DNA from: Spirochaetia bacterium | Lineage (GTDB): Bacteria > Spirochaetota > Spirochaetia > SZUA-6 > Bin103 | Direction: 5' to 3' | Length of the DNA stretch: 64,000 nt | Assembly (NCBI GenBank): GCA_965198005.1 | Contig: CBDAOI010000004.1 | Location: 800,001 to 864,000 of the forward strand | Shown here: one piece after another, positions 11,603 through 34,131 of the stretch | Layout: each line of letters opens with the position of its first letter | How positions within the stretch are numbered: position 1 is the first letter of the stretch | Program-made: the position numbers and the translations under genes | The notes under the pieces: model-generated | Seen by the model: only the letters and a program-made list of their open reading frames with translations | Told to the model about the DNA's origin: nothing | Databases searched by the model: none

Positions 11603-13948
11603 GCATGCCGCTGCGGCCGGCCAGCGCCGCACCCTCGTGATCGAGGCGCTGGCAGCGTCGCTGCACGCGACAAGCCGGCACAACCCGGACGACGTGGAGC
11701 AACCGGCTGCGATCCTGTGGACCGATCCGAGTGCGGCCTGGCAACCGATTGTCCCGCACCTGCAGCGGCTCATGCCGCACCTGCTCATCCTGGGCGACTT
11801 CGCTCCCGAGCAGCGCACCGGGCCGGCGATCTGGCTGCGCTGCATGATCGAGCGAGCCCTGCCGTCTCCCGAGATTCCCGCCGACCTGACCCCGATCATC
11901 TACCTGCCCGCCGTGAGCCGGCAGGTGCTCGGCGCCGCCGACACCTGCCCCGACGACCTGAAACCGCTGGTCGAGCTGCAGTATCGCGGCGTCTGCTGGA
12001 CCCAGAAGAACGGCAGGGACTGGACGGTGGAGGCATTTCTGGTGTCGCGCGACGGCGGCCTGGGACTGGACGTCGCGGCGGATGCGGCTACGCGCCAATC
12101 CATGCTGCGGTCCCTGACGGAGCTGGCACCGACGCCGGTGCACGCGCTCACCGGGCGGCGGCTCGAAGCCGAGGACTTCGACCGGCTGTTTTCCAATGAC
12201 CCGGACCGCGACCTGTTGGTCTGGCTGAACGACACCAGGAGTGTGCGGGCGGGTTGGGAGGCGGCGCGTTGGAGTGCCTTCAGGTCGCGCTGCAGGAAGG
12301 ACCTCGGGTTCGACCCCGACAAGGACGGCGAGCTGGCCGCCGCAGAACGACTCGGCGGACGCGACGGGCCCTGGGGCTCGATCTGGAACCGCTTCGCCGA
12401 GTCTCCGGCGCTATACGGGAGCATTCCGGAGTTGCTGCGCCGCGCACGGCCCGACGAGCTGTTCGTGGAACGTTCCTCATGGCCTCAGGACAACGCTGCG
12501 GAGGAAGCCGCGCTGCGCCGCGCCCTGCTTGAGCTCGATGGCCTCGCGCCTGCCGCCGGGCGTGCGCGGGTCCTTGAGCTTGAGACACAACATGGCGAGC
12601 GGCGCGAGTGGATGTGGGCGAGGCTCGACCAGGCAACGCTGGCCTTCGCCATCGGCCACTTGGCGGTGATCGCGGAGCGTGCCGCGACCGCGCTTGGCGG
12701 GGCCTCCCGGGAGGAGATGGCCCGGTTGTACGCGGACGACGCCTGGAAAGTCGATGCCGCGGCACTGGGCAGTGTAGCGGCGGTGAGAACGGCGGCGGAC
12801 ACGCAAGCGGTAAGCCGGGCCTTGCACGCCATCTACCGTCCCTGGTTGGAGGCCGCGGCCCACCACCTGCAGGCCCTTGAGGCGGCCGGTCTTCCGCCGT
12901 CCGCGACGCCGGCCCGAGGGATCAGCCGCAGGTCGAACCTGGCACGGTGCTGTTGTTCGCCGACGGTCTGCGGTTCGATGTCGGGCAGCGCCTGGTGGAA
13001 CGGCTGCGAGCACAGGGTCGCTCGGTCACGGTGACCACGCGGTGGGCGGCGCTTCCCACCGTCACGGCGACTGCCAAGCCGGCCGTCTCCCCGGTCAGAG
13101 ACGGCATCAAGGGGCTATTGCTGGGCGACGACTTTAGGCCGGTGACGGCAGCCGACGCCCGCCCGCTCACCCCCGACCGGTTCCGGAAGCTCCTCACCGA
13201 TGCCGGCTTCGCGTACCTCGACGCGTCCGACACCGGAGATCCGGGCGGCCGCGCCTGGACCGAGAGCGGGCAGATCGATCGGCTGGGGCACTCCCTGAAG
13301 GGCGGCCTCGCCGCCCGCATCGACGATGAGATCGAGCGGCTCCTGGAACGGGTCGAGTTACTCTGTGCCGCCGGGTGGCGAGAAGTACAAGTCGTAACCG
13401 ATCACGGCTGGTTGTGGCTCCCCGGCGGGCTGCCGAAGGTCGATCTTCCCAAGTACCTCACCACGAGCCGGTGGGCGCGCTGCGCGGCTATCGCCGGCGA
13501 ATCCACGGTAGAGACGCCGGTCATCAGGTGGCACTGGAACGCCCAGGAACGTGCGGCCGTGGCCCCCGGCATCGCGTGCTTCAGTGCGGGTCACGAGTAC
13601 GCTCACGGGGGGTTGAGCCTGCAGGAGTGCCTGATCCCGAACCTGCGCATCACCGGCCGCACCGCGTCGGCCGCCACGGAGACCAACATCTCGGCGGATA
13701 CCTGGGTGGGCTTGCGTTGCCGCGTGCGCGTAGATGGCGCCGGGCCGGGGATGTCTATCGACCTGCGCACCCGCGCCGGCGACCCCGCCAGCAGCGTCAG
13801 CACGCCGCGACCGGTGGCTGGCGACGGATCGGGCAGCCTGCTGGTGGCCGACGACGACTTGGTAGACAGCCCGGTCCTGGTGGTCGTCCTGGACGCCGAC
13901 GGGCAGGTCATCGCCAAGCGATCGACCATCATCGGAGGTGAGCAGTGA
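11595..13948 (+). pseudogene. pglZ: BREX phosphatase PglZ (type B), frameshifted near 12900-12920
   Basis: ILWTDP, RTGPAIWLRC, NGRDWT N-terminal region; second frame carries FADGLRFD, VVTDHGW, YAHGGLSLQEC; directly precedes brxL. Confidence 0.85.
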
Positions 13949-22024: not shown

Positions 22025-23824
22025 ATGAAGATATTCTTTACACGGACTTTCGCGGTTGCGTTGGTCCTGGTGCTGACCGCCACCGGCCTCTGGGCCGCTG
22101 GCGCAGAAGAGGACACGACCGCCGCCGGGGAGAAGAGGTATGTCACCGACCCGACCACCGGCAAGATGGTGGTGGCACCACAGTATGGCGGGACAATAAC
22201 CTATGCCAAGGGAGGGACATCGACGGGTGCCGACGTCCTGGTCCTAGGCTCAATGGCAGAAGCCCTAATCGATCCCGTCGTCGAGAAGCTGGGGATGGCG
22301 GACTGGGCAGCGCCCAGGGACGAATTCCAGTTCCTCGGTAATCTCTGCCCTCCAGCCTACACGAAAGGGGGTCTGGCGGAAAGCTGGTCGCAGCCCGACC
22401 CACTCACTATTATCGTCAAAGTCCGCCGGGGCGTTCACTGGCATGACAAGGCACCGATGAACGGAAGGGAGCTGACTGCCCAGGATATCGAGTACAACTA
22501 TCACCGTATCTTGGGACTCGGCAGCGGTTTCACCGAGCCTAGCGAAGCTAGTAAATATGGTGCGTTGTCAGGTGTGAACGTGGAATCGGTAGCGGCCACC
22601 GACAAATATACGGTTGTTTTCAAGCTGCAGGAGCCAAGGCTCACTATTCTGACCGCTATCTTCAACGAATTCACCGGCTTTATGTACCCCCCCGAAGTGA
22701 TCAAGGAACACGGGGACATGCAGGATTGGAGGAACCTGGTCGGCACCGGACCCATGATGCTGACTGACCGGGTCGAGGGCATCTCCGTAACCTTTACCAA
22801 GAATCCCGACTACTGGGGCTACGACGAAAAATACCCGGAGAACCGTTTGCCCTACGTTGACCGGATAAGGGCACTAGTTATGACGGAACCGGCGACACGT
22901 CTGGCGGCACTGCGCGCCGGTAGGCTTGATTACATAGGTCTGATCGGCGCAGCTCAAATAGCGTCTCTCGACCAGGTAGAAAGCCTCCAGAAGACCAACC
23001 CCGAACTCGTGATATATCCGTCTGCTGCTTTCTCGACCACTAGTATAGGCATGAACGTTCAGGCGGAGCCCTTTGACGACATCAGGGTGCGCAAGGCAAT
23101 GCAGATGGCCATAAACCTCGAGGAAATCAACAACGCCTACTATAGGGGTTATGCCGATATCATACCTCAGGGGCAGCTAAGCCGGACTATTTCACAGGCT
23201 GTCATCCAATTCGAAGATTGGCCCGAAGATGTCAAGAAGGTCTTTGACTACGACCTGGAAGGTGCCGAAGCGTTGCTTGATGAGGCTGGATATCCGCGCG
23301 GCGCCGACAGCGTGAGATTTAAGACCGACTTTATGCACAACGAGAGGTACGATTTGAACTATGTACAATTAGTCGCCTCATACTGGAAAAGAATTGGCGT
23401 TGACGTGGAGATTGATGTACAGCCAGGCACGGCCATTGGCGCTAGAAGAAGTGCGGGAGATTTCAGACTCATGCAAGGGGAATCGGCCGGGAAAGTGTGC
23501 CCATGGGGATGGGCAGGGGGGAAGCGCTTTACGGATGTAGCATGGGACTCCTCCAATGTCGACGACCCAGTTTATAATGCCATGGTTGAAGCCGCCGAAG
23601 GCGCCTCCACCATGGAGGAACTAAACAGCATGGTTAAAGAGGTAAATCAGTATGCGATAGAGAACTTCTGGACGCTATTTAGTCCTGTGGCCCCAGTGTA
23701 TTCGGCGGTCCAGCCGTGGATCATAGGTTTCAACGGCGAGATGAGGTTGGGAGAGAATCGATATATCACCGTTTTCACCCGCCTCTGGATCGATCAGGAG
23801 CTCAAGGAGTCGATGGGTTTCTAG
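22025..23824 (+). CDS. Peptide/nickel ABC transporter substrate-binding protein (family 5)
   Basis: Signal peptide, QYGGT, LAESWSQPD, VGTGPM, KNPDYWG, PFDDIRVRKA. Confidence 0.93.
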   Translation: MKIFFTRTFAVALVLVLTATGLWAAGAEEDTTAAGEKRYVTDPTTGKMVVAPQYGGTITYAKGGTSTGADVLVLGSMAEALIDPVVEKLGMADWAAPRDEFQFLGNLCPPAYTKGGLAESWSQPDPLTIIVKVRRGVHWHDKAPMNGRELTAQDIEYNYHRILGLGSGFTEPSEASKYGALSGVNVESVAATDKYTVVFKLQEPRLTILTAIFNEFTGFMYPPEVIKEHGDMQDWRNLVGTGPMMLTDRVEGISVTFTKNPDYWGYDEKYPENRLPYVDRIRALVMTEPATRLAALRAGRLDYIGLIGAAQIASLDQVESLQKTNPELVIYPSAAFSTTSIGMNVQAEPFDDIRVRKAMQMAINLEEINNAYYRGYADIIPQGQLSRTISQAVIQFEDWPEDVKKVFDYDLEGAEALLDEAGYPRGADSVRFKTDFMHNERYDLNYVQLVASYWKRIGVDVEIDVQPGTAIGARRSAGDFRLMQGESAGKVCPWGWAGGKRFTDVAWDSSNVDDPVYNAMVEAAEGASTMEELNSMVKEVNQYAIENFWTLFSPVAPVYSAVQPWIIGFNGEMRLGENRYITVFTRLWIDQELKESMGF

Positions 23825-23829
23825 GGGCT

Positions 23830-24301
23830 TTGAGCAGCCGACAAGACTGCATTCCAGCCGGGGAAGGACCGGCCGTACCAATTACCCGGTTCGGGTACGT
23901 AGTGATGCCACAGTTCGTGTTGGGTAACCGCACGATAGCTGCGTGGTGTATAAGGCCCTGCCGCTTTGTCAGGCAAAGGACTGCAAGGTGGGGGCATCCA
24001 GAGGGTCGGTGCATGTCGGATGCCTGACGGGCACACGCCGGGGCGCTGTACCCGGGCAACGTGAGAAGTCGGAGCGGGCATCGAGCCGGTGGTATAACCG
24101 GCCGGGTTAGGGGCGTATGCGTGCCAGCGCTTGCGCTTCGGCCCCGTCGGGAAGGTCCATCGGGGAAAGTGGGCATGGCCGCCAACCGGACTCGAGAAAT
24201 TCGACCGTCCGGGATGAGAGGGGGGCTTCGCGGAAACGTGGAACTGATAACGAGGAGCTGGGAGCCGCTTCCGAGCGCGTTTCCCAGCTCCTCTACTCGT
24301 T
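23830..24301 (+). ncRNA. ORF-less group II intron-like ribozyme
   Basis: Domain V-like hairpin aaccggac-tcga-gaaa-ttcga-cc-gtccggga (24184-24214); domain VI 12-bp stem gagaggggggct/agctcctct(A)ctc with bulged A24295; J2/3-DIII-like gagaagtcgga at 24063; no RT ORF. Confidence 0.75.
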
Positions 24302-24325
24302 GACTGAGAGGCAACGGAGAATCGC

Positions 24326-25288
24326 TTGAGGGCCTATATCTTCAGGAGATTGTTGCTGACTGTCCCGACCCTGTTCATATTGAGCATCCTGGTCTTCCTT
24401 TCGGTCCGCTTCATCCCCGGCGACGTAATAGACGCAATACAGGAGCGGCTGGGATACACAGTATCCGGTGCGTCGGTCGACCGGGAAGCGCTAGAGCGTC
24501 AACTGGGACTAGACGTGCCTGTCTACGTGCAGTACGGACGCTGGTTGAGGGGCATTTTCGTGCACGGCAGCCTCGGCGAATCACTGATGGGCCGAGGGGC
24601 GGTGGAGCAGAAGATAATAGATAGACTGCCGGTAACCATTGAGCTTGGTTTGATGGCAATCCTCATCGGGCTGGTGATCGCGTTGCCGGTCGGCATCTAC
24701 TCGGCGATTCGCCAGGATACCGTCGCCGACTTCCTGGGGCGCTCGGTCGCCATCGTCGGCCTGGCCACGCCCAACTTCTGGCTAGGCATCATGGTCATGA
24801 TCTACCCGGCCATCTGGTGGGGCTGGGCGCCGCCGCTGGAGCTGGTTTCCCTCACGGAAGACCCGCTGGGGAATCTGGCGGTGTTCGTCATTCCCAGCCT
24901 GATTCTGGGAACGGCCGCGGCTGCAGCCACCATGCGGATGACGCGCACCATGATGCTGGAGGTGCTCCGGCAGGATTTTATCAGGACGGCCTGGGCGAAG
25001 GGCTTGCGGGAGCGGGCCGTGGTGATCCGACACGCGGTCAAGAATGCCCTGATCCCGGTGGTGTCCCTGATCGGCCTGCAGTTGCCGATTCTGGTGGGGG
25101 GCGCCGTGATCATGGAGAACATCTTCAACCTGCCGGGCCTCGGCCGTCTCTTGCTGACTGCCCTCAATGACAGAGACTACCCGATGGTCTCCGGCATCAA
25201 CCTGTTTTTCGCCACCGGTGTGGTGGGGATCAATCTCCTCATCGACCTGGTCTATGCCTTCTTGGACCCCAGGGTCCGCTATGACTGA
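24326..25288 (+). CDS. Peptide ABC transporter permease (OppB/DppB)
   Basis: RRLLLTVPTL, FIPGD, RLPVTIEL, LPGLGRL, LDPRVRY. Confidence 0.92.
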   Translation: MRAYIFRRLLLTVPTLFILSILVFLSVRFIPGDVIDAIQERLGYTVSGASVDREALERQLGLDVPVYVQYGRWLRGIFVHGSLGESLMGRGAVEQKIIDRLPVTIELGLMAILIGLVIALPVGIYSAIRQDTVADFLGRSVAIVGLATPNFWLGIMVMIYPAIWWGWAPPLELVSLTEDPLGNLAVFVIPSLILGTAAAAATMRMTRTMMLEVLRQDFIRTAWAKGLRERAVVIRHAVKNALIPVVSLIGLQLPILVGGAVIMENIFNLPGLGRLLLTALNDRDYPMVSGINLFFATGVVGINLLIDLVYAFLDPRVRYD

Positions 25289-30746: not shown

Positions 30747-31014
30747 CGATTTCGAACCGAGAACCAACTAACCGCTGCGGCTGATCGCCCCGAACGCGCC
30801 GCGGCGGGCGCCTTCGCGGTTGGCACGGGGGTAGCGGCCGGCTCCGTGTGGCGCCGGCTCAGTCCACGTTCGTTCACTGGCTACCGCAACCGTCCCGCAG
30901 CCCCGTCCGTCACACCCCCGGCGTTGCCCGCCATTCAGAAGCGCTGCCGCGCCGACCACCATCCGATGGTGGCACACCACCCAGTGTGGGGTTGTGACCC
31001 AGGTCCCGACGTAC

Positions 31015-31182
31015 GTCAATTGCCGAAATCTACGGAAAGTGGAGGTGCAAAATGATACTCAAAGAACCGCACGCGCGCGCGGCGTGAGCCCGGGCGAACC
31101 CGGTGAGTCACACGCCGTGCGCGTCACACAGTTGACTCTCACTGGCCGCCTGCGTTGCGGGCGTGAGAGTAGCCAGGGAGCG
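31015..31182 (+). promoter_or_regulatory. Conserved structured leader with uORF MILKEPHARAA (31052-31087), second copy
   Basis: Homologous to 21807-21975; differences fall in loops or keep G-U pairing. Confidence 0.7.
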
Positions 31183-31230
31183 GCAAGCCGCTGCGCAATA
31201 CTCTCGGAAATCAAACATACGGAGTTACGT

Positions 31231-33051
31231 ATGAATATTGTAATAATCACAAGGGCCTTCGCGATTGCGTTGGTCCTGGTTGTGACCGCGACCGGCGTCT
31301 GGGCCGCCGGCGCAGAAGAGGAGCCGGCAGCCGCTGCCGACAAAGAGACGGTGTTCGACCCCGCCACCGGCCAGACGTGGACCGCGCCAGAGTATGGCGG
31401 GACACTCACGCAGGGCGTTAGGGGCTTTCCCCCAAATAATAATAGTGACGGGTGGTCGGTTCATCCTGGCTGGGCGGCTCACCTCATCAGTGGCGTTAAT
31501 GAGAAGCTAGCCTTCGTCGACTGGGGACAATCCAGGGATATATGGACAGGCACACAGCCTTGGACCGCCGAGATGTTTATAGGGAATCTGGCTGAAAGCT
31601 GGTCAACGCCCGACGACACAACGTTCATCTGGCACATCCGCCAGGGCGTTTACTGGGACAATAAGGCGCCGGTGAACGGTCGGGAGTTCGATGCCCATGA
31701 CGTCGAATATAACTATCACCGCTATTTGGGTCTGGGCGATTTCACCGAAGACGGACCTAGCGCCCATCAGAGTGCTATAACTGCGTCTGGGAGAGCGGGT
31801 GTAGAGATCGAATCGGTAACGGCCACCGACAAATGGACGGTTGTTGTTAAGCTCAAGCCTCACGTCCTTGTGTTGCAGCATATGCTCAACAACTACTTGA
31901 TGATCTACGCCCCAGAGCAAATCGATGAATACGGCGACGCTAAGGATTGGAGGAACCTGGTCGGCACTGGTCCCTTGAGACTGACTGATGTCGTGGAGGG
32001 CAGCTCGGCAACCTGGGAGAAGAATCCTAACTACTGGGGCTACGACGAAAAATTCCCGGAGAACCGCTTGCCCTATATTGACAAGTTAAGGTCCTTGTTG
32101 CTACCAGACGTGTCAGCACGTCTGGCAGCAATGCGTACGGGCAAGATTGATATGCTGAGCAACACCGGCGACGCCTATATACAATCTCTCGACGATGTAG
32201 AGAGCCTCCAGAAGACCAACCCTGAAATCGATGTGTGGCCCACTTATGCCTGGATAGCGGGCGCATTCCTTTTCAACCAGTCTCTGCCGCTCACTGCCGA
32301 CGTCAATGTGCGCAAGGCACTGCAGATGTCAGTGGACCGCGAGACAATTTCCGCTACCTACTATAAGGGTTGGGGAGATCCAACACCTGGTGCGCTATTC
32401 AATCAACGCTTTATAGGGTATTCCTGGCCAATGGAAAACTGGCCCGACGAGGTCAAGCGTGAATATGAGTATCACCCGGAAGAGGCAGAAGCGTTGCTTG
32501 ATGCGGCCGGGTATCTGCGCGGCGCCGACGGCTATAGGTTCAAGGTCAAGCTTGCCAATAACGAGGCGAACGATTCGACCTATCCAGAAATCATCATGGG
32601 GTACTTCGAAGCCATTGGCGTTGACAGCGAGCTTGTTATCCTGACTCGTGCTGAAGTAGGAGCTTCCCAAAGGGCGGACACGCACGAGTGGCACCTAGCG
32701 GATGGGGGATGGATGGGCCTTACAACCCACTTTGGGATCGGGTCGGTAAGCCAAAACATTGATGGCTTCAGCTTCAACAAAGCGAAGGACCCGCGTATGG
32801 AGGCCCTGTATTATGCTGCCGAAGAGACTATGGACATTGAGGAGTATAAGAGTATTCAAAGACAGGCCGATGAGATCACTGTAAGGGAGCACTGGGGCCT
32901 ATCCAAACCCTTCTCCCCTATCGTTTTCGTGAGCCACCCGTGGGTCCAGGGCTATTTCGGTGAAGATTCTTTGGGAAGGGGTGAACGTAATACCTTCTTG
33001 GCCCGCCTCTGGATTGATAGTGAGCTGAAGGAAGCAATGATGGGAAATTAG
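31231..33051 (+). CDS. Peptide/nickel ABC transporter substrate-binding protein (family 5)
   Basis: Signal peptide, EYGGT, LAESWSTPD, VGTGPL, KNPNYWG; GGAG RBS. Confidence 0.93.
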   Translation: MNIVIITRAFAIALVLVVTATGVWAAGAEEEPAAAADKETVFDPATGQTWTAPEYGGTLTQGVRGFPPNNNSDGWSVHPGWAAHLISGVNEKLAFVDWGQSRDIWTGTQPWTAEMFIGNLAESWSTPDDTTFIWHIRQGVYWDNKAPVNGREFDAHDVEYNYHRYLGLGDFTEDGPSAHQSAITASGRAGVEIESVTATDKWTVVVKLKPHVLVLQHMLNNYLMIYAPEQIDEYGDAKDWRNLVGTGPLRLTDVVEGSSATWEKNPNYWGYDEKFPENRLPYIDKLRSLLLPDVSARLAAMRTGKIDMLSNTGDAYIQSLDDVESLQKTNPEIDVWPTYAWIAGAFLFNQSLPLTADVNVRKALQMSVDRETISATYYKGWGDPTPGALFNQRFIGYSWPMENWPDEVKREYEYHPEEAEALLDAAGYLRGADGYRFKVKLANNEANDSTYPEIIMGYFEAIGVDSELVILTRAEVGASQRADTHEWHLADGGWMGLTTHFGIGSVSQNIDGFSFNKAKDPRMEALYYAAEETMDIEEYKSIQRQADEITVREHWGLSKPFSPIVFVSHPWVQGYFGEDSLGRGERNTFLARLWIDSELKEAMMGN

Positions 33052-33071
33052 CAGTATACGCCTGCGGAGCT

Positions 33072-33100
33072 AGGCGGCGGTCGCTTGCGAGCGCCGCCCT
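33072..33100 (+). promoter_or_regulatory. Intergenic hairpin after the SBP gene (mRNA stabiliser/partial terminator)
   Basis: aggcggcg-gtcgc-tt-gcga-gcgccgcc stem without U tract. Confidence 0.45.
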
Positions 33101-33126
33101 GCTCCCATACTTGGGGTACCTACACC

Positions 33127-34131
33127 ATGAGAAGCTATCTCATCAGGCGGCTATTGCTCACAATCCCCACCCTGTTCATATTGACCATCATCGTCTTTCT
33201 CGCGGTCCGCTTTATCCCCGGCGATGTGATAGACGTAATGGTGGCTGAGATGAATACTTTCCAACCCGGGACGATTGACCGTGAAGCTCTGGAGCGTCAG
33301 CTGGGACTGGACGTGCCTGTCTACGTGCAGTATGGACGCTGGATAGGAGTGTTGCCGACCCCTGACTGGATTACCGGTGAGCCCCACTTTAAAGGCCTCC
33401 TCCAGGGCACCTTTGGCGAATCACTGTTTGGCGCTGCTTTTGCGATAGAGCAGATCATAATCGGGAGATTGCCAGTAACCATTGAGCTTGGTGCTCTGTC
33501 AATCGTAATTGGGCTCGTTATAGCCCTTCCCGTCGGCGTCTACTCGGCGATCCGCCAGGACACCGCCGCCGATTACGTAGGGCGCACCGCCGCCATCATC
33601 GGCTTGGCAACACCGAACTTCTGGCTCGGAATCATGGTCATGCTCTACCCGGCAATCTGGTGGGGCTGGTCGCCGCCGATGGAGCTGATTCCCTTCAAGG
33701 AAGACCCGCTGGGGAATCTCGGGATGTTCCTCATTCCGGCCCTGATTCTGGGGACGGCCCTTGCTGCCAGCACCATGCGGATGACGCGCACCATGATGCT
33801 GGAGGTGCTCAGGCAGGACTATATCAGGACCGCCTGGTCGAAGGGGCTCAGGCAACGGGTAGTTGTCATGCGGCACGCCATCAAGAATGCTCTCATCCCG
33901 GTAGTTACGCTCGTAGGCCTGCAGCTCCCCCTCCTGGTAGGTGGCTCCGTTATCCTGGAGCAAATATTCGCTCTTCCGGGGATAGGCCGTATGTTTGTGG
34001 ATGCGCTCGATGGAAGAGACTACCCGGTAATCTCCGCAATAAACCTGATTTTTGCTACCGCGGTTTTAGGGATCAATCTCATGATCGACGTTATTTATGC
34101 TTTCTTGGACCCAAGGGTTCGGTATGAATAG
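33127..34131 (+). CDS. Peptide ABC permease OppB/DppB
   Basis: RRLLLTIPTL...LDPRVRYE. Confidence 0.93.
   Translation: MRSYLIRRLLLTIPTLFILTIIVFLAVRFIPGDVIDVMVAEMNTFQPGTIDREALERQLGLDVPVYVQYGRWIGVLPTPDWITGEPHFKGLLQGTFGESLFGAAFAIEQIIIGRLPVTIELGALSIVIGLVIALPVGVYSAIRQDTAADYVGRTAAIIGLATPNFWLGIMVMLYPAIWWGWSPPMELIPFKEDPLGNLGMFLIPALILGTALAASTMRMTRTMMLEVLRQDYIRTAWSKGLRQRVVVMRHAIKNALIPVVTLVGLQLPLLVGGSVILEQIFALPGIGRMFVDALDGRDYPVISAINLIFATAVLGINLMIDVIYAFLDPRVRYE

Follow-up and report, generated by a model that had tools for sequence, protein, structure and literature searches.

What separates the SBP gene from the permease gene in a transporter operon whose neighbour needs only a short spacer at the same place? 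The window, as we call the whole stretch of 64,000 nucleotides of Spirochaetia DNA that was analysed, contains two such operons. In one of them the SBP ORF ends at 23824 and the permease ORF starts at 24326, so that the spacer is 501 nt long (23825-24325). In the neighbouring paralogous operon the spacer (33052-33126) measures 75 nt, a figure already given in an earlier note on this DNA and borne out here. That note described an insert of ~470 nt and read it as a compact, ORF-less group II intron-like RNA. The long spacer is real and so is the insertion, as both element-free contig junctions and 21 empty target sites among 31 demonstrate, but the insertion itself covers only about 413 nt (23831-24243). 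We conclude that it is probably a twice-deleted remnant of an ORF-less group II intron-like family, here called Y, which decayed after inserting in sense orientation.

The features of the locus are as follows.

22025..23824, + strand: SBP gene, 599 aa, Opp/Dpp/Nik-type SBP family 5 (ORF; Pfam SBP_bac_5, E 5e-67)
23831..24243, + strand: probable family Y remnant, ORF-less group II intron-like element, 413 nt (element-free contigs; homology to full-length Y)
24252..24293, + strand: native intercistronic hairpin, 12-bp stem (24252-24263 with 24282-24293), -31.6 kcal/mol
24326..25288, + strand: ABC transporter permease gene, 320 aa, TTG start (ORF; Pfam BPD_transp_1 and BPD_transp_1_N)

The limits of the remnant are precise to about ±2 nt, and the insertion site is flanked on its 5' side by the stop codon of the SBP gene plus ~6 nt. 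Every NCBIfam match of the SBP gene falls below its cut-off. A scan of 23600-24500 returned no promoter sites and no terminator sites. Five ORFs in or overlapping the spacer were tested, and because none of them has a Pfam family we agree with the earlier statement that the spacer contains no RT ORF; by the same test it lacks the RT/maturase that mobile group II introns encode in domain IV. A coding reading of the spacer was rejected, both on the absence of Pfam families from all five ORFs and on the length of the internal deletion described below, 406 nt, which is not a multiple of three. Folded as RNA, the spacer (23825-24325) does slightly better than shuffled sequences (z = -2.0).

An expanded operon family and its native hairpin

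The genome (G000; 4.89 Mb, 66% G+C, four contigs) contains a hugely expanded family of these operons, to which 22025-25288 and 30900-33200 of the window belong. Searches by tblastn with the window proteins located 142 stop codons of SBP_bac_5-type genes, 129 of them with a permease start less than 3 kb downstream. The median length of these 129 spacers is 132 nt, the shortest having 47 nt and the longest 2898; 26 of them measure 316-1157 nt. Among the more than 100 paralogues matched by blastn, the permease genes agree at 72-87% identity over their first ~100 nt. Long SBP-permease spacers, up to 1157 nt, are mosaics of modules that are 85-100% identical to one another (for example C4:422607-423358, C3:896907-897865 and C4:1586684-1587840). 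Many of the modules are hairpins that end in AATGAC and are followed by a run of G; they are absent from the window's own spacer, and they look like a REP/BIME-type repeat system confined to SBP-permease spacers.

The hairpin at 24252-24293 is native to the operon family. It is more stable than its shuffled counterparts (z = -5.4, with none of 200 shuffles folding equally well), and its two arms, GGAGCTGGGAGG and CCTCCCAGCTCC, each with at most two mismatches, occur together in 48 of 127 SBP-permease spacers. The neighbouring operon has its own example at 33066-33105. Where Y is absent, the hairpin usually lies 4-40 nt past the SBP stop codon; in spacers with Y it is shifted downstream by the length of the remnant. 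A short form (~30 nt) and a long form (~42 nt) exist, with a stem conserved at the sequence level. No run of T follows the hairpin at 24252-24293. It may act as an mRNA processing or stabilising signal or as a recognition site, and it fits the description of a REP/BIME-type repeat, which the 413-nt insert does not.

The same hairpin had earlier been taken for domain VI of an intron. The 12-bp stem (24252-24263/24282-24293) is present as described, but its recurrence in 48 of 127 spacers identifies it as the operon's own. In the minimum-energy fold the single bulged A attributed to it (24295) lies outside the helix, 2 nt past the end of the stem. As for the proposed inner helix, GGAAACGTG (24232-24240) is indeed complementary to CGCGTTTCC (24276-24284), but the pairing would join two unrelated modules, and because it overlaps the 12-bp stem at 24282-24284 the two structures are mutually exclusive.

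Family Y: copies, target site and deletions

Parts of the insert recur in the genome. The segment 23825-24008 is found in three other SBP-permease spacers at 97-98% identity, and its first 56-64 nt are found in four more; 24047-24242 repeats in one spacer at 86% identity. All Y copies in this genome are in sense orientation and start directly after the SBP stop codon. Outside it, Y sequences are present in four of ten other genomes of the same genus and in none of 13 genomes of the sister genus. Copies from sister species match the window segments at 96-98% identity, with 406 nt between the segments and ~95 nt more after them. The complete element is ~915 nt long and ORF-less, and occurs at full length in four sister species. 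Since identity to the window is 96-98% for Y but only 67-83% for the SBP and permease genes on either side, it falls sharply at the ends of the element. Copies suitable for defining these ends, which the earlier note had proposed to look for, are available at other SBP-permease spacers and in the sister species, and their boundaries are sharp. In a scan of genome contigs, the exact pattern of the Y 5' end occurred in four stretches, all in three Spirochaetia bacterium MAG records.

Comparison of filled with empty sites places the insertion point between TAG GGGTTT(N) and (C)ACCCCTTGTGGCT, to within 1-2 nt. Among 31 spacers with this target, 10 are filled and 21 empty. The remnants measure ~700, 413, 316, 250, 205, 145 and 76 nt, with all junctions different; one further copy retains Y positions 1-104 and 542-612, and two more sites are 16-nt footprints. 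Each of the eight larger copies in the genome is a different deletion derivative. A diverged copy in another genome (G006), 80% identical, has other junctions again and has lost 10 nt inside domain V. Because the junctions differ both among the copies of this genome and in the G006 copy, no compact form of Y is conserved, and the deletion series appears, from its sequences, to be decay and not design.

A further piece, C4:2031825-2031908, matches Y positions 502-586 (87 aligned nt, 79% identity). By eye its core is near-identical, and it lies within an open reading frame of 517 aa unrelated to transporters.

Evidence for descent from a group II intron

At gathering thresholds Rfam has no match in the whole 64-kb window, and at E ≤ 10 no group II model, whether of domain V/VI or of D1-D4, matches 23600-24500. 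On the covariance-model scan with Intron_gpII and the D1-D4 families, which had been named beforehand as a check, the window copy therefore fails. The native 12-bp hairpin, read on its minus strand, gave two chance matches at E ≤ 10, one to a microRNA and one to a scaRNA model, which were discarded. The evidence for descent comes instead from full-length Y, to which the window copy is tied by 98% identity over its two retained segments.

When the full-length copy L010 (positions 880-1800) was submitted to cmscan, RF02003 (group-II-D1D4-4) matched over the whole model with 33.2 bits (E 1.6e-5). The match spans L010 941-1119 on the sense strand and begins ~30 nt from the 5' end of Y. The most complete Y copy of the genome under study (L004) scores 32.1 bits against the same model (E 7.5e-4). 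Both scores are significant, yet both lie under the gathering score of 49. A D1D4-6 match that adjoins the RF02003 match on L010 is weak (13 bits, E 0.3). RF00029 (Intron_gpII, domains V-VI; threshold 40 bits) has no match at E ≤ 10 either in window 23600-24500 or in L010 880-1800. An RF02003 search of the genome, in which 150 of 227 candidates were scored, gave 30 matches, none at Y copies.

For the 3' end we built a covariance model, R2, from seven RT-bearing or X-type introns (see below) and no Y sequence. Applied to the 3' 159 nt of full-length Y, it returns 55.7 and 54.4 bits (E 3e-11 and 6e-11); it gives 37.4 bits on a related copy from another family and 12.2 bits (E 0.24) on the window copy, and its sole match in the 64-kb window is 24179-24297 on the plus strand. 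RNAalifold, applied to Y, X2, the RT-bearing intron and a copy from another family, yields a domain V and a long domain VI in which 17 of 32 pairs are compensated. When Y, X and the RT-bearing intron are aligned, common blocks appear at the 5' end, in domain V and in the unusually long domain VI. Profiles of sequence behave otherwise: an nhmmer profile of five family X copies retrieves X copies only and not Y, while an nhmmer domain V-VI profile of three introns ranks the window site 12th genome-wide at E 4.2, which is not significant alone. A search by eye for EBS/IBS pairing with the target found none assignable with confidence.

Both ends of full-length Y are homologous to group II introns, in the correct order and on one strand, and we judge from these comparisons that it derives from a group II intron. 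Even full-length Y may never have spliced, because its triad (AAC), 5' end (T/GAGCA) and 3' end (GC/CC) depart from the consensus.

Anatomy of the window copy

BLAST against full-length Y (L010 911-1842) shows that the window copy keeps Y positions 1-184 and 591-827 at 98% identity, and hence is without 406 nt of the 5' half, part of domains I-III (L010 1095-1500). The retained pieces comprise the following.

23855..24008, + strand: 5' part of domain I, corresponding to the first ~4/5 of the RF02003 match in full-length copies
24006..24008, + strand: internal deletion junction with TCG microhomology (abutting BLAST pieces, alignment, loose end in run X1)
24063..24073, + strand: GAGAAGTCGGA, candidate J2/3-like motif, within the retained 3' segment of Y
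24184..24215, + strand: domain V homologue AACCGGACTCGAGAAATTCGACCGTCCGGGAT (fold, alignment, covariation, Y-free model R2 on full-length Y)
24216..24243, + strand: linker and 5' strand only of the long domain VI, with the GGAAACGTG motif (alignments; loose end in run X15 at 24242)

The description of the insert as an ORF-less group II intron-like RNA is right as to its descent and its lack of an ORF; it is not compact in any native sense, the full form being ~915 nt long. Nor is it a minimal variant ribozyme, as had been supposed: next to full-length Y of the sister species, it has lost 406 nt from its 5' half as well as the final ~95 nt.

Several smaller elements that had been pointed out are present. 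The candidate J2/3-like motif GAGAAGTCGGA is located at 24063-24073 and is kept, with one change, in full-length Y copies. The domain V-like hairpin starting AAC is, by fold, alignment and covariation, a true domain V homologue. It has a 4-bp upper helix, a 5-nt loop containing GAAA and a 2-nt bulge on the 3' strand, as in the RT-bearing intron. At the position of the AGC triad it reads AAC, with the two lowest pairs lost; on account of this triad its lower helix has 6 bp, against 9 in the RT-bearing intron. A paired AGC or CGC triad is found neither in the window hairpin nor in any other Y copy, all of which have AAC.

The GGAAACGTG motif in domain VI is one that Y shares with other introns of this class in the genome. 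With the 3' ~95 nt the window copy has lost the 3' strand of domain VI together with its branch A and the 3' splice site; a bulged branch A in domain VI and a 3' end AY are accordingly missing from the window copy, which has no domain VI 3' strand. Full-length Y retains the bulged A (…CTACCC…), but its 3' end is GC/CC and not AY. The consensus for the 5' end of group II introns is GUGYG, and Y, which begins at T/GAGCAGCC by comparison of filled with empty sites, does not conform to it. The 'CTCGTT' proposed for the 3' end is native spacer and not an end of the element.

Other introns of the genome

The search for a reverse transcriptase elsewhere in the genome, suggested along with the original reading, was successful: an RT/maturase is encoded on contig C2, and a third intron family (Z) has an RT-like ORF. 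The RT-bearing intron and the copies of family X are listed here.

C2:~156400-158400: RT-bearing group II intron (RF02003 103.5 bits; RF00029 38.5 bits, under 40)
C2:156920-158227: RT/maturase ORF, 435 aa, RVT_1 and GIIM (TIGR04416 373 bits, cut-off 300)
C2:11070-11882 and 11888-12700, - strand: family X copies
C3:704183-705055, C3:706035-706848, C4:2009522-2010341, C4:277422-277977 and C4:1717467-1718126: family X copies

Family X is a second ORF-less group II family, with elements of 813-873 nt. Its six full-length copies score 50.5-51.6 bits against RF02003, over the gathering score, with a 5' offset like that of Y, and its triad is AGC, opposed by GAA. X includes one head-to-tail tandem pair and one 5'-truncated copy; another copy ends early, at about nt 560, and is followed by what appears by eye to be a transposase-like ORF. 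Family Z consists of ~2-kb group II introns, with 15 copies of at least 1.9 kb that are 97-99.6% identical (for example C4:683123-685153). The Z ORF, of 538 aa, is RT-like by its YADD motif and by 32% identity to the C2 RT (tblastn), and Z scores only 23.6 bits against RF02003. The 3' flank of the C2 RT-bearing intron has a Z-like domain VI, which suggests that this intron is nested.

A second covariance model, R1, which includes Y, finds the domain V-VI class of Y in 26 of 92 genomes of the order. Besides Y, one copy of family f7 and two fragments of family f2 have a domain V of the AAC type. The helices of these AAC-type domains differ by compensatory changes, and no intact RT lies upstream of them. 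The hairpins outside Y, in which AAC is opposed by GGG(A)U, are at the loci below; AAC-type domain V thus spans three families of the order.

G029:C81:10380-10534 (L040): AAC domain V hairpin
G024:C336:44-121 (L057): AAC domain V hairpin
G070:C63, locus 1501-1577 (L058), - strand: AAC domain V hairpin

The stretch in RNA and DNA contigs

The stretch is present in sequencing runs from nine studies; six runs are recorded as metatranscriptomes, two of these being labelled sponge metagenome. The RNA evidence consists of Logan contigs, from which neither strand nor expression level can be read and which cannot prove that something is absent. Contigs of two RNA libraries include a piece of 815 nt from full-length Y. 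Loose ends at 24008 (run X1) and 24242 (run X15) run on as in full-length Y.

Contigs without the element join 23830 to 24244, with 12 other letters between the two sides. This joint and a second one (23827→24252) carry 12 or 24 unrelated letters, and the match on the shorter side is 33-36 nt. Given the unrelated letters, the short matches and the occurrence of one joint also in X1, a run of unknown kind, we read both as element-free versions of the spacer and not as splice products. No exact exon ligation across the element is listed among the contigs, which as such cannot prove absence. Contig depths in three RNA libraries are 394, 88 and 63-69 for Y against 49, 48 and 5.5 for the SBP gene, and in X1 118 against 29. 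Since copy number could account for these depths in the RNA libraries, we make no statement about expression.

Interpretation

Homology to Y, the deletions, the common insertion site and the sense orientation are observed directly, and from them the following history may be reconstructed. An ORF-less group II-like retroelement of ~915 nt would have inserted in sense ahead of the native intercistronic hairpin of the operon, a few bases past the end of the SBP gene, at a target common to many paralogous operons of the peptide/nickel ABC type. One deletion would then have removed 406 nt of domains I-III, and a second the 3' ~95 nt, in which the 3' splice site, the branch adenosine and the domain VI 3' strand lie. 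The surviving parts, the first ~180 nt of domain I and a ~235-nt 3' piece that ends with domain V and the domain VI 5' strand, should be incapable of splicing or moving. Within the SBP-permease transcript the remnant would be a passive passenger that adds structured RNA and influences permease expression incidentally, if at all; both its transcription and its lack of effect are things that we infer. The family itself would have spread by retrohoming, for which other introns in the genome would have lent their reverse transcriptase in trans, although Y may alternatively have spread by recombination between paralogous operons.

Could the insert be working as it stands, as a compact ORF-less variant group II ribozyme that adjusts expression of the permease by splicing itself, by cleaving nucleic acid or by being mobilised in trans? 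In its favour, the insert keeps a true domain V homologue, lies in sense orientation inside an operon and belongs to a genome with RT-encoding introns, and DNA-cleaving ORF-less IIC introns (HYER) are described in 10.1101/2024.08.31.610620. We nevertheless consider this very unlikely: 406 nt of the 5' half, the domain VI 3' strand, the branch A and the 3' splice site are gone, the domain VI proposed in their stead is the native hairpin of 48 of 127 spacers, the triad is AAC with lost pairs, Rfam is blank on the window, and all 10 copies in the genome have different deletions, as does the G006 copy, so that no compact form is conserved. A group II likeness due to chance, in what would really be a REP/BIME-like intergenic mosaic spread by gene conversion, is hardly more probable. 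Spacers of the operon family do share modules, many of them REP-like hairpins ending in AATGAC; all Y copies have a single genomic context, such as recombination between paralogues could yield, and searches by sequence alone do not link Y to the other introns. Against this, two independent covariance models, RF02003 (E 1.6e-5) and R2 (E ~1e-11), match the two ends of Y in the correct order and on the correct strand, pairs of domains V and VI are kept through compensatory changes, and identity drops sharply at the ends of Y.

The remnant might also have been co-opted as a cis-acting structured spacer that stabilises the SBP message or lowers translation or transcription of the permease. Long spacers of 316-1157 nt built of repeated hairpin modules make up 26 of the 129, the window spacer folds at z = -2.0 relative to shuffles, and Y sequence is found in RNA libraries. 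But 21 of the 31 operons that share the target lack Y, the copies in the others vary in size from 16 nt to ~700 nt, the native hairpin is retained regardless, and the depth in RNA libraries is within what copy number explains. We regard co-option as improbable, if somewhat less so than the two readings above. The window copy, then, is unremarkable as a relic, though the intron family from which it comes is unusual, and the earlier reading was partly right.

A separate question concerns the family as a whole, which might be a living, protein-less lineage of group II-derived RNA with a non-canonical catalytic core, in which AAC with an A·G opposition takes the place of the G·U of AGC in other introns. 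We think this unlikely but worth keeping in view, because three families of the order have an AAC-type domain V whose helices show compensatory changes, because Y is 96-98% identical between species whose flanking genes are 67-83% identical, and because one precise target has been filled within an operon family of ~140 members. If it were true, full-length Y of the sister species could reverse-splice with an RT provided in trans, or act as a different kind of ribozyme, and the window copy would be one of the lineage's corpses.

As a probable dead retroelement fragment the window insert should be annotated as such, and in itself it carries little weight. More is to be gained from the family. 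It provides, at one conserved target, a series of natural deletions of an ORF-less group II-like element; the genome around it also holds RT-encoding introns and a second ORF-less family; and its domain V escapes the standard domain V/VI model. In expanded ABC operon families, SBP-permease spacers may serve as safe landing sites for selfish RNA elements.

Comparison with known systems

Truncated and fragmented copies of group II introns are reportedly present in bacterial genomes, according to surveys by Dai and Zimmerly. Such copies are usually 5'-truncated. The window remnant is like them in being apparently non-functional, in lying in non-coding DNA and in being recognisable only through complete copies. 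It is unlike them in that Y forms a whole deletion series at one conserved target, with 10 sites from ~700 to 16 nt, and in that its losses are internal deletions together with loss of the 3' end.

REP/BIME elements consist of a short palindromic unit repeated at many intergenic sites, and those between malE and malF in E. coli are intercistronic repeats that affect expression of the flanking genes. The position of Y between a binding-protein gene and a permease gene is the same, and two kinds of hairpin resemble such elements, namely the native one with its 12-bp stem and those ending in AATGAC in the sister spacers. The 413-nt insert, unlike them, appears to be intron-derived and is not a short palindromic unit.

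A limited search of the literature on group II introns of spirochaetes and sponge symbionts, and on an AAC triad in domain V, found no description of an element of this kind. By the account in the portion of PMC4424553 (2015) used here, the domain V triad of group II introns is AGC or CGC, bacterial ORF-less introns are rare and nearly always stand beside related RT-encoding introns, and IIC introns insert just downstream of a terminator stem-loop or attC. Class C (IIC) introns and HYER, as the portions of PMC4424553 and 10.1101/2024.08.31.610620 used here present them, are like Y small, intergenic, ORF-less and situated beside a stem-loop. In contrast to IIC introns as that portion of PMC4424553 places them, Y lies upstream of its hairpin, which has no T-run, and 23600-24500 contains no terminator-like site; Y further matches D1D4-4, has a very long domain VI and carries AAC where IIC introns have CGC or AGC. 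No cleavage activity can be inferred from the likeness.

The nearest parallel is with the ORF-less introns treated in the same portion of PMC4424553. Like them, Y has no ORF in domain IV, exists in nearly identical copies and resides beside related introns whose RT/maturase could act in trans. It departs from them in its AAC domain V, its non-consensus ends and its invisibility to RF00029, and the window copy departs further in being a deleted fragment and not a complete intron. That source allows that more ORF-less introns have perhaps been overlooked only if their domain V is unlike the known ones, and Y and X, both of which share their genome with RT-encoding introns as it describes, are candidates for introns overlooked in just this way, through an unusual domain V.
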